Source of the DNA: Escherichia coli
Lineage (GTDB): Bacteria > Pseudomonadota > Gammaproteobacteria > Enterobacterales > Enterobacteriaceae
NCBI RefSeq assembly: GCF_003334355.1
Contig: NZ_QOWP01000067.1
Length of the DNA stretch: 6,146 nt
Strand: one strand, 5' to 3'
Every line of letters begins with the position of its first letter. Within the stretch, counting starts at the first letter, position 1. A model generated the notes under the pieces. The model was not told the origin of the DNA, did not search any database, and saw nothing but the letters and a program-made list of their open reading frames with translations. The translations under genes were made by a program, and so were the position numbers. Shown here in pieces: positions 4,324 to 6,095 of this stretch.

Positions 4324-4329
4324 GCGATA

Positions 4330-4349
4330 GACTGTATGTAAACACAGTA
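4330..4349. promoter_or_regulatory. Canonical LexA box gACTGTATGTAAACACAGTAt (CTGT-N8-ACAG), 20 bp upstream of the ISCR2 transposase ATG
   Basis: Matches consensus TACTGTATATATATACAGTA at both conserved arms; 15 of 17 positions identical to box 1 at 3867-3883 (ACTGTATATAAACACAT vs ACTGTATGTAAACACAG). Confidence 0.55.
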
Positions 4350-6095
4350 TTGCAAGGACGCGGAACATGCCTCATGTGGCGGCCAGGACGGCCAGCCGGG
4401 ATCGGGATACTGGTCGTTACCAGAGCCACCGACCCGAGCAAACCCTTCTCTATCAGATCGTTGACGAGTATTACCCGGCATTCGCTGCGCTTATGGCAGA
4501 GCAGGGAAAGGAATTGCCGGGCTATGTGCAACGGGAATTTGAAGAATTTCTCCAATGCGGGCGGCTGGAGCATGGCTTTCTACGGGTTCGCTGCGAGTCT
4601 TGCCACGCCGAGCACCTGGTCGCTTTCAGCTGTAAGCGTCGCGGTTTCTGCCCGAGCTGTGGGGCGCGGCGGATGGCCGAAAGTGCCGCCTTGCTGGTTG
4701 ATGAAGTACTGCCTGAACAACCCATGCGTCAGTGGGTGTTGAGCTTCCCGTTTCAGCTGCGTTTCCTGTTTGCCAGCCGGCCCGAGATCATGGGGTGGGT
4801 GCTGGGCATCGTTTACCGCGTCATTGCCACGCACCTGGTCAAGAAAGCGGGCCATACCCACCAAGTGGCCAAGACGGGCGCGGTCACCCTGATCCAGCGT
4901 TTTGGATCGGCGCTCAATCTGAATGTTCACTTCCACATGCTGTTTCTCGACGGTGTGTATGTCGAGCAATCCCACGGCTCAGCGCGTTTCCGCTGGGTCA
5001 AGGCGCCGACCAGCCCAGAGCTCACCCAGCTGACGCACACCATCGCCCACCGGGTGGGTCGCTATCTGGAACGGCAAGGCCTGCTGGAACGGGATGTCGA
5101 AAACAGCTATCTGGCCTCGGATGCGGTGGATGACGACCCGATGACACCCCTGCTGGGGCACTCGATCACTTACCGTATCGCTGTCGGTTCACAGGCGGGG
5201 CGAAAGGTGTTCACTTTGCAAACTCTGCCGACCAGTGGTGATCCGTTCGGTGACGGGATTGGCAAGGTAGCCGGGTCCAGCCTGCACGCCGGCGTGGCGG
5301 CCAGGGCCGATGAACGCAAGAAGCTCGAACGGCTGTGCCGGTACATCAGCCGCCCGGCGGTATCCGAGAAGCGGCTGTCGTTAACACGAGGCGGCAACGT
5401 GCGCTACCAGCTCAAGACGCCGTACCGGGACGGCACCACGCACGTCATTTTCGAACCATTGGATTTCATTGCAAGGCTGGCCGCCCTGGTACCGAAGCCC
5501 AGAGTCAACCTAACCCGCTTCCACGGGGTGTTCGCACCCAACAGTCGGCACCGGGCGTTGGTCACGCCGGCAAAACGGGGCAGGGGCAACAAGGTCAGGG
5601 TGGCTGATGAACCGGCAACACCAGCACAACGGCGAGCGTCGATGACATGGGCGCAACGGCTCAAGCGTGTTTTCAATATCGACATCGAGACCTGCAGCGG
5701 CTGCGGCGGCGCCATGAAAGTCATCGCCTGCATTGAAGACCCTATAGTGATCAAGCAGATCCTTGATCACCTGAAGCACAAAGCCGAAACCAGCGGGACC
5801 AGGGCGTTACCCGAAAGCCGGGCGCCACCGGCTGAGCTGCTCCTGGGTCTGTTTGACTGACGAGCCTGAAGGCCAACGATACCAATCAAAATGCTGCGTT
5901 CACAGCGCCGCGGCAGGGATCCGCCGTGCTGGTTGTCGGAAAAGGAGCCGCTAGTGGGAAAGAGGAGGGTAAATTTTCAGCGTTGCTGGCTCCCCGTCAG
6001 CCGGATTGGGTTGCATCGCAGGGGTGTCGAAAGAGTCAACTGCGGTCCAAAGCTGTTGGACTTGGGTGAAAAGGGCGTTTATTCTTCCTATACGT
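4350..6095 (+). mobile_element. ISCR2 element (5' terIS boundary uncertain, about 4324-4366; oriIS end about 6095, equivalent to position 26)
   Basis: Transposase CDS plus about 235 bp of 3' sequence ending in '...gggcgtttattcttcctatacg', which resembles IS91/ISCR oriIS termini as I recall them; directly abuts the truncated glmM and sul2; composition shifts to high GC near 4350. Confidence 0.7.
4367..5860 (+). CDS. ISCR2 rolling-circle (IS91-family, HUH) transposase, 497 aa
   Basis: Recognised as the ISCR2 transposase; N-terminal Cys cluster CESCHAEHLVAFSCKRRGFCPSCG (zinc-binding), HUH-type motif in NVHFHMLFLDGVY, candidate catalytic tyrosines in RYQLKTPYRDG; RBS 'aagga' 8 nt upstream. Confidence 0.95.
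   Translation: MPHVAARTASRDRDTGRYQSHRPEQTLLYQIVDEYYPAFAALMAEQGKELPGYVQREFEEFLQCGRLEHGFLRVRCESCHAEHLVAFSCKRRGFCPSCGARRMAESAALLVDEVLPEQPMRQWVLSFPFQLRFLFASRPEIMGWVLGIVYRVIATHLVKKAGHTHQVAKTGAVTLIQRFGSALNLNVHFHMLFLDGVYVEQSHGSARFRWVKAPTSPELTQLTHTIAHRVGRYLERQGLLERDVENSYLASDAVDDDPMTPLLGHSITYRIAVGSQAGRKVFTLQTLPTSGDPFGDGIGKVAGSSLHAGVAARADERKKLERLCRYISRPAVSEKRLSLTRGGNVRYQLKTPYRDGTTHVIFEPLDFIARLAALVPKPRVNLTRFHGVFAPNSRHRALVTPAKRGRGNKVRVADEPATPAQRRASMTWAQRLKRVFNIDIETCSGCGGAMKVIACIEDPIVIKQILDHLKHKAETSGTRALPESRAPPAELLLGLFD

Follow-up and report, generated by a model that had tools for sequence, protein, structure and literature searches.

The stretch of DNA analysed here (the window, 6146 nucleotides in all) covers the whole of a small circular plasmid and a little more, since bases 1-77 recur at 6070-6146; the plasmid unit is 6069 bp. 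Over the regions queried it is 100% identical to the Salmonella Choleraesuis plasmid NC_005862.1 (6066 bp), and ~6-kb relatives with the same identity, again over the regions queried, occur in Escherichia, Shigella, Salmonella and Citrobacter. Its ColE1-type backbone carries a truncated bacteriocin gene and a resistance module in which sul2, a remnant that we take to be ΔglmM from the name used in the literature, and the ISCR2 transposase gene rcr2 can be recognised (Table 1). The rcr2 product is found at 100% tblastn identity in many plasmids. It scores 670.8 bits against the NCBIfam model ISCR_clade_Ia and 107 bits against transpos_IS91, below the curated cut-offs of 925 and 125 respectively, so that its assignment to ISCR2/ISVsa3 is based on its identity to ISVsa3 instead of the models.

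Table 1. Features of the window discussed in the text; L002 denotes the homologous locus of the Enterobacter roggenkampii plasmid NZ_CP096196.
Feature	Position	Strand	Remarks
sul2	356-1171	minus	
RNAI of ColE1-type replicon	1509-1610		
162-residue ORF	3276-3764	minus	shorter form in NC_005862.1 annotated as entry exclusion protein 1
Backbone bacteriocin promoter, TTGACG-18 nt-TAGTAT	3830-3859	plus	9/12 in promoter scan; region also in L002
Colicin-type double LexA operator of the backbone	3866-3899		matrix scan; unchanged in L002 at 776-808
Truncated bacteriocin ORF, glycine-rich	3934-4323	plus	codons 1-103 (to 4242/4243) are backbone
Left (terIS-side) boundary of ISCR2	4244-4266	plus	six contexts converge at 4244-4249
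GAGTGGGA	4244-4251		core of GIsul2 attLR site; one exact copy in window
GGGAGTGACGGGCACTGGC, putative terIS from the literature	4248-4266		PMC9376610
TAGACT, published putative -10 of Prcr2	4328-4333	plus	overlaps left arm of operator
LexA (SOS) operator of ISCR2	4330-4349		20-mer GACTGTATGTAAACACAGTA; core CTGT-N8-ACAG at 4332-4347
AAGGA, likely Shine-Dalgarno of transposase gene	4354-4358	plus	8 nt before ATG; read from the sequence
rcr2, ISCR2/ISVsa3 transposase gene (497 residues)	4367-5860	plus	from ORF list; annotated WP_001120888.1, IS91-like element ISVsa3 family transposase

Just upstream of rcr2, the 17-mer at 4331-4347 reads ACTGTATGTAAACACAG and encloses the palindromic core CTGTATGTAAACACAG. 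No other exact CTGT-N8-ACAG occurs in the 6146-bp window, where 0.07 such sites are expected by chance, and 15 of 200 shuffles of the window contain at least one. The full 20-mer departs at four positions from the textbook 20-bp consensus, TACTGTATATATATACAGTA, and a search of the window for that consensus with up to three mismatches consequently returns no match. The recA operator, by our own count, likewise has four mismatches. On a position weight matrix for which 26 operators of E. coli LexA served as the training set, the ISCR2 box scores 21.0 bits, the best value in the window and one reached by none of the 200 shuffles. This places it in the middle of the range of the training operators (12.8-27.7), equal to yebG and above uvrA and lexA, so that the box combines the palindromic core of a Gammaproteobacterial LexA operator with a score within the range of proven ones. 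The description of this site in an earlier note as a consensus-grade SOS box is thus well founded. Downstream, 6 nt separate the box from the ribosome-binding site and 19 nt separate it from the transposase ATG. The accompanying remark that no convincing -35/-10 pair precedes the transposase also stands: the best plus-strand candidate before the ATG, GTAAAA-18-TAGACT, matches the consensus at 7/12 positions, and between 3700 and 4500 no site of at least 9/12 was found beyond the bacteriocin promoter and two sites inside the ORF. The operator overlaps TAGACT, the sole -10-like hexamer, which belongs to this weak candidate.

Does the box belong to ISCR2, or to the plasmid in which ISCR2 resides? 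A megablast search with positions 4150-4520 against 72,556 plasmids gave 4081 matching plasmid records, 4020 of them at 99% identity or above, and the ISCR2 5' region is present at 95% identity or above in more than 4000 plasmids, whose hosts include Escherichia, Klebsiella, Salmonella, Acinetobacter, Vibrio and others. Among the matches listed, nearly all alignments outside the window's own plasmid family start at 4244-4249 and include the box. An alignment of seven fetched loci together with the published SXT copy shows six unrelated left flanks meeting within this same 6-bp interval. The six contexts are the bacteriocin gene of the window plasmid, the resG-hyp arrangement of GIsul2-type islands (in Klebsiella and in Acinetobacter pAB3), RSF1010, floR-lysR, Aeromonas pAb5S9 and SXT. 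The bacteriocin and resG-hyp contexts share GAGTGGGAGTGAC from 4244, the common sequence begins at 4248 for RSF1010 and SXT, and for the remaining two it begins at 4249. This convergence implies that the box, whose core starts at 4332, to the right of the boundary common to independent insertions, lies 83-88 bp inside ISCR2. Two 5'-truncated copies of ISCR2, broken at 4305 and 4325, still retain it.

The alignments show that the LexA box upstream of the transposase is an integral part of the 5' end of ISCR2 (ISVsa3), and is not part of the plasmid. Aligning the junction with other ISCR2 contexts had been proposed as a check, and the outcome, with a boundary at 4244-4249 and a box that travels with ISCR2 in thousands of plasmids, bears out the suggestion that the box belongs to the element. 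As a separate observation, the putative terIS given in the literature, at 4248-4266, agrees with a position of the box inside ISCR2; the attLR core of GIsul2 is placed 112-130 bp upstream of rcr2 in the published account (PMC9376610).

The LexA box of the ISCR2 promoter, Prcr2, has been described by Lallement, Jové, Pasternak, Da Re and Ploy (bioRxiv 10.1101/2025.11.21.689736, November 2025; J Bacteriol 2026, PMC13393415). LexA binding and weak SOS control of the ISCR2 transposase are already known, and the box reported here is a rediscovery. The sequence is identical to theirs: from 4248 to the ATG the window matches their reference, AY055428, and their primers, and the SOS box entry in their Table S3 ('ctgtatgtaaacacag'), the EMSA and lacZ constructs and the putative -10, TAGACT, all agree with the window. 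Only the neighbourhood differs, since ISCR2 lies here behind a truncated bacteriocin gene with an SOS promoter of its own, a context that is not among the four over-represented gene combinations named in the text of PMC13393415. In that study 84% of the available rcr2 sequences show a canonical LexA-binding sequence, and its listing gives no box for copies of ISCR2 type from Acinetobacter tet(X)/dfrA20 contexts.

All three checks that the earlier note called for are in print: the comparison of ISCR2 contexts by alignment, a LexA EMSA and a measurement of expression after SOS induction, the last with a lacZ reporter in place of RT-qPCR (PMC13393415). Purified E. coli LexA shifts ISCR2 promoter DNA in EMSA but does not shift a CAG-to-ACT mutant. 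A 106-bp fragment, equivalent to positions 4248-4353 of the window, gives less than 5 Miller units when fused to lacZ. Activity is 3.9 Miller units in the wild type against 6.3 in a ΔlexA strain, a 1.6-fold difference, and mitomycin C gives ~2-fold induction; both effects are statistically significant but small. Mutation of TAGACT raised activity 3-fold instead of abolishing it, and the hexamer is therefore not validated as a -10. The operator mutant gave 56.7 units in the wild type and 39.4 in ΔlexA, compared with 6.3 for the native promoter in ΔlexA (Table S1, PMC13393415), implying that about 6-fold of the reported 14.5-fold rise is independent of LexA. From the authors' numbers, although this is not a claim of theirs, we infer that the CAG-to-ACT change either makes the promoter stronger or does away with some other feature. 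For ISCR2 the share of the regulation that depends on LexA is only 1.6- to 2-fold, and the published data support no more than a weak LexA effect. The claim that the box is positioned to control the transposase thus agrees with experiment as far as the existence of control is concerned, but the effect measured for ISCR2 is small.

Related elements provide a second line of evidence. An alignment was made of the 150-bp regions that precede the start codons in ISCR1, ISCR2, ISCR8 and ISCR22, with sequences taken from Fig. S1 of PMC13393415. The sole long invariant block in these four regions is A-ACTGT ... ACAGTAT, which corresponds to the LexA arms with their flanks, and the 8-bp spacer between the arms is different in every one of the four. 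The transposases of ISCR1 and ISCR2 are 65% identical. Like ISCR2, the other three elements have a CTGT-N8-ACAG box with ACTGT/ACAGTAT arms directly upstream of the transposase start; for ISCR22, whose perfect box, CTGTGTATTTGCACAG, is not mentioned in the text of PMC13393415, this likeness is one of sequence only. The box lies 19-21 nt from the ATG in ISCR2 and ISCR1, compared with 5 nt in ISCR8 and ISCR22. A pattern of invariant arms around a freely varying spacer fits an operator kept by selection. The copies of ISCR2 itself are almost clonal, so that agreement among them says little about selection.

In their response to LexA these elements differ markedly. ISCR1 and ISCR8 are repressed 18-fold and 4-fold, and their -10 (TACTGT) has been validated, in contrast with the 1.6-fold effect and the failed -10 validation for ISCR2 (PMC13393415). 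By our reading of the published numbers (PMC13393415), ISCR1 behaves like a classic SOS gene, rising 18-fold in ΔlexA, with an operator mutant that reaches at most ~2.5 times that level. No box was found in the groEL-linked plasmid ISCR elements (58-61% identity; probably of ISCR27/ISCR14 type), and the same was reported in PMC13393415. A relative from Acinetobacter, at 66.5% identity, is interrupted by IS1008 ahead of the start codon and is hence uninformative.

We conclude that the palindrome at 4332-4347 is very probably a LexA operator, integral to and conserved in the 5' region of ISCR2/ISVsa3, which holds a weak transposase promoter shut. A LexA dimer on the box would cover TAGACT and likely the transcription start as well, so that an already very weak promoter would stay closed; DNA damage, acting through RecA-stimulated self-cleavage of LexA, would then bring a modest derepression of the transposase. 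We infer both the position of this promoter, with its -10 and start site under the box and occluded by LexA, and any effect on transposition. Transposition of an ISCR element has never been demonstrated experimentally (PMC13393415, PMC9376610).

An alternative is that the palindrome binds LexA in vitro but is vestigial, or has some other role, as a site for the transposase or a host factor or as part of the architecture of the terIS end, with SOS control of rcr2 being negligible. The small induction (1.6-2-fold) and the low activity of the promoter (less than 5 Miller units) would suit this explanation, as would the ~6-fold rise that the CAG-to-ACT change produces even without LexA, and the authors themselves suggest another regulator or sigma factor and propose that ISCR2 may rely on carrier elements to spread (PMC13393415). 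In ISCR1 (GCTGATACTGT...ACAGTATCAGC) and ISCR8, moreover, the palindrome is longer than the LexA core. The arms conserved across ISCR1, ISCR2, ISCR8 and ISCR22 are, however, exactly the CTGT/ACAG half-sites that LexA contacts, with their TA flanks, while the spacer is free to vary, and LexA repression of ISCR1 and ISCR8 is clear. Nor does the DNA of ISCR2 point to another structure: no longer inverted repeat or hairpin was found around the box or the left end (seed 6, positions 4200-4420), and the predicted single-strand DNA fold of 4244-4366 is no better than those of shuffled sequences (z = -0.92). We therefore regard a vestigial or architectural palindrome as unlikely, and favour the LexA operator.

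The operator might instead serve mainly to gate a leftward, outward-facing promoter, giving SOS control of the DNA adjacent to terIS and not of the transposase gene. An extended -10-like sequence, TGCAATACT, does overlap its right arm, in the form TG-n-AATACT on the minus strand from 4354 to 4346, but the match to consensus is weak (7/12, with a poor -35), and the neighbouring genes in the floR-lysR and resG-hyp contexts point the same way as rcr2, so that a leftward transcript would be antisense to them. Such a role seems very improbable.

The proximity of a second, similar box in the bacteriocin promoter is best understood from the backbone. A tblastn search with the truncated ORF found almost only the same truncated gene, the intact gene being present in one Enterobacter plasmid. 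This intact relative, L002 (4068 bp), shares the backbone but has no resistance module. It has the promoter and the double operator in the same form as the window, together with a 260-codon gene that is intact, a gene of 199 codons on the opposite strand and, as judged by eye, a terminator-like hairpin followed by a T-run. Its 260-residue protein is identical to the product of the window ORF up to ...DTANNV, the first 103 codons, and diverges at 4244. At the DNA level the window tracks L002 exactly to 4243, continues with ISCR2 DNA and returns to the backbone at 1268. The last 27 codons and the stop of the truncated ORF are thus the left end of ISCR2 read in frame, and the DNA between the two boxes is the 5' third of the 260-codon gene, cut at 4243/4244. 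The comparison indicates that an ISCR2-ΔglmM-sul2 module replaced ~1.1 kb of backbone, comprising the 3' two-thirds of the bacteriocin gene and the neighbouring gene. There is no second GAGTGGGA core at the other module junction (1267/1268), and a simple integrase-mediated insertion therefore does not account for both. An identification of the backbone bacteriocin as colicin Z was considered and rejected, since colicin Z has 237 residues and a 151-residue four-helix membrane immunity protein, compared with 260 and 199 residues here.

The two SOS sites also differ in form. The backbone site, which belongs to the plasmid, consists of two overlapping boxes of colicin type that follow a good promoter (9/12), whereas ISCR2 has a single box and no good promoter. 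The first backbone box, at 3866-3885, scores 17.6 bits, second best in the window, with ACAT in place of ACAG, and its weaker overlapping partner at 3880-3899 scores 8.0 bits. The earlier note correctly recorded that the ISCR2 17-mer is identical at 15/17 positions to that of the first backbone box, at 3867-3883 (ACTGTATATAAACACAT), 464 bp away. The ISCR2 17-mer, however, matches the chromosomal operators of umuDC and dinD equally well, at 15/17 positions, and four further operators at 14/17, implying that the resemblance reflects the shared LexA consensus and not duplication. Since the ISCR2-free backbone of L002 keeps the first box and has no exact CTGT-N8-ACAG anywhere, and ISCR2 in other contexts has its own box without the bacteriocin one, the two must have been brought together by insertion. 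Their nearness is an accident of where the module landed. The remaining proposals, that ISCR2 captured its SOS control from the backbone or that the 464-bp segment is a duplicated or inserted cassette, are refuted. The 15/17 identity, which umuDC and dinD equal, and the bracketing geometry speak for them, but the ISCR2 box occurs in every ISCR2 context examined and is missing from the intact backbone. The other box and the half-box paired with it form the usual double operator of the backbone bacteriocin promoter, which occurs also where ISCR2 is absent, and the DNA between the two boxes is colinear to 4243 with an uninterrupted bacteriocin gene that the incoming ISCR2-sul2 module has cut.

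What might SOS control mean for this element? The promoters of the integron integrase genes, intI, provide the example of a LexA-controlled recombinase of a mobile element. As in intI, the host SOS repressor would act in ISCR2 on the promoter of a mobility enzyme and couple movement to DNA damage, although for ISCR2 this is putative, and the enzymes differ, intI encoding a tyrosine recombinase and ISCR2 an HUH rolling-circle transposase. Thousands of plasmids carry ISCR2 in linkage with resistance genes, among them sul2, floR and tet(X), and a transposase under SOS control would tie the movement of these genes to DNA-damaging antibiotics. Because the SOS link has already been published for ISCR1, ISCR2 and ISCR8, the window adds no new principle. 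What it usefully contributes is clear evidence for the box as a component of the element, which removes the ideas of duplication and capture.

Finally, the arrangement in the window's plasmid lineage may have consequences of its own. Comparison with L002 indicates that the terminator-like hairpin of the bacteriocin gene was lost with the backbone segment that the module replaced on arrival. No terminator is predicted in 3700-4500, an interval that spans the bacteriocin promoter and the transposase ATG, and the end of the truncated ORF is 44 nt upstream of that ATG, which is preceded by a likely Shine-Dalgarno sequence of its own. Together these features suggest that transcripts from the bacteriocin promoter should run into rcr2. 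We predict, tentatively and at rather less than even odds, that rcr2 may be the second cistron of a strong, SOS-induced, colicin-type transcription unit in this lineage. Three LexA boxes would then gate rcr2, one of them, the box of ISCR2 itself, serving as a roadblock as long as the cells are unstressed. If such read-through does occur, the element, with its almost silent promoter, would respond to SOS much more strongly here than it does in the contexts where it has been tested. The arrangement in the window's plasmid family would be a cheap natural test case, and the bacteriocin promoter is found together with a complete ISCR2 in 18 PLSDB plasmids.

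The LexA box of ISCR2 is found together with the 5′ end of this element in other plasmids. RSF1010 and the 6.2-kb sul2-strA-strB plasmids retain a 5′ fragment of ISCR2 that includes the box, and in p9123 this fragment is still attached to the same truncated bacteriocin gene that is found in the window. Among related elements, ISCR22 (AY831462, Fig. S1 of PMC13393415) has a perfect predicted LexA box, CTGTGTATTTGCACAG, 5 nt upstream of its ATG, a placement much like that in ISCR8; the text of PMC13393415 names only ISCR1, ISCR2 and ISCR8 as box-bearing elements.

The constructs in Table S1 of PMC13393415 correspond to window 4248-4353, and in the ΔlexA background the ISCR2 operator mutant gave 39.4 Miller units, against 6.3 for the native fragment. 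Because the mutant is thus ~6-fold above native even when LexA is absent, the greater part of the reported 14.5-fold effect does not come from lost LexA binding. On the minus strand, an extended -10-like sequence, TGCAATACT (window 4346-4354), which is a weak match to consensus, overlaps the LexA box at its right arm and is directed outward from the ISCR2 left end. Close to that end is a further motif, GGCAATGTCT (window 4268-4277), which ISCR3/5/6/10/14/19-type elements also carry within their left ends, with the form GCGATGTCT in ISCR1, and which may be a conserved recognition motif on the terIS side.

How did the CR2-sul2 unit enter this backbone? On its left side the resistance module meets the backbone at GAGTGGGA (window 4244-4251), which is the attLR core of GIsul2 (PMC9376610), and the backbone target, at 1154-1161 of the Enterobacter plasmid L002 (NZ_CP096196), is CAGTGGGG. 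These junction sequences raise the possibility that the unit may have been brought in by the GIsul2 integrase acting at a secondary site, rather than by ISCR2 transposition. The attLR core is absent from the other junction of the module, at window 1267/1268, and that junction matches a breakpoint (1267-1270) common to many sul2 contexts.

Features of the window and of related plasmids
Feature	Location	Strand or context
ISCR2 5′ fragment including LexA box	RSF1010 of SL1344, 1501-1773	just past strB end
ISCR2 5′ fragment including LexA box	p9123, ~2541-3094	just past strB end
RNAI, ColE1-type replicon	window 1509-1610	minus
Tandem repeat, 11-bp unit TACATCACTTT x 5.6	window 2841-2902	non-coding, between replicon and 162-aa ORF
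Intact 260-aa bacteriocin gene	L002 844-1626	4068-bp Enterobacter plasmid
199-aa gene	L002 1653-2252	opposite to bacteriocin gene

Over window 3934-4243 the glycine-rich ORF corresponds to codons 1-103 of a 260-aa bacteriocin, of which L002 carries an intact copy. This protein, which appears not to have been characterised previously, has weak Pfam matches to Phage_lysozyme and Pesticin (E ~1.5e-3), and colicin Z was rejected as its identity. The product of the 199-aa gene is a putative secreted immunity protein, judged by eye alone. The -10 element of the bacteriocin promoter is one step nearer consensus in the window (TAGTAT, 3854-3859) than in the intact Enterobacter plasmid (TAGCAT, 764-769).

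Finally, an exact overlap of 77 bp between the two ends of the window (1-77 and 6070-6146) shows that it is a complete circular plasmid, with a unit of 6069 bp, read beyond its own start. The tandem repeat that it carries can alternatively be described as a 22-bp unit present in 2.9 copies, with 100% matches.
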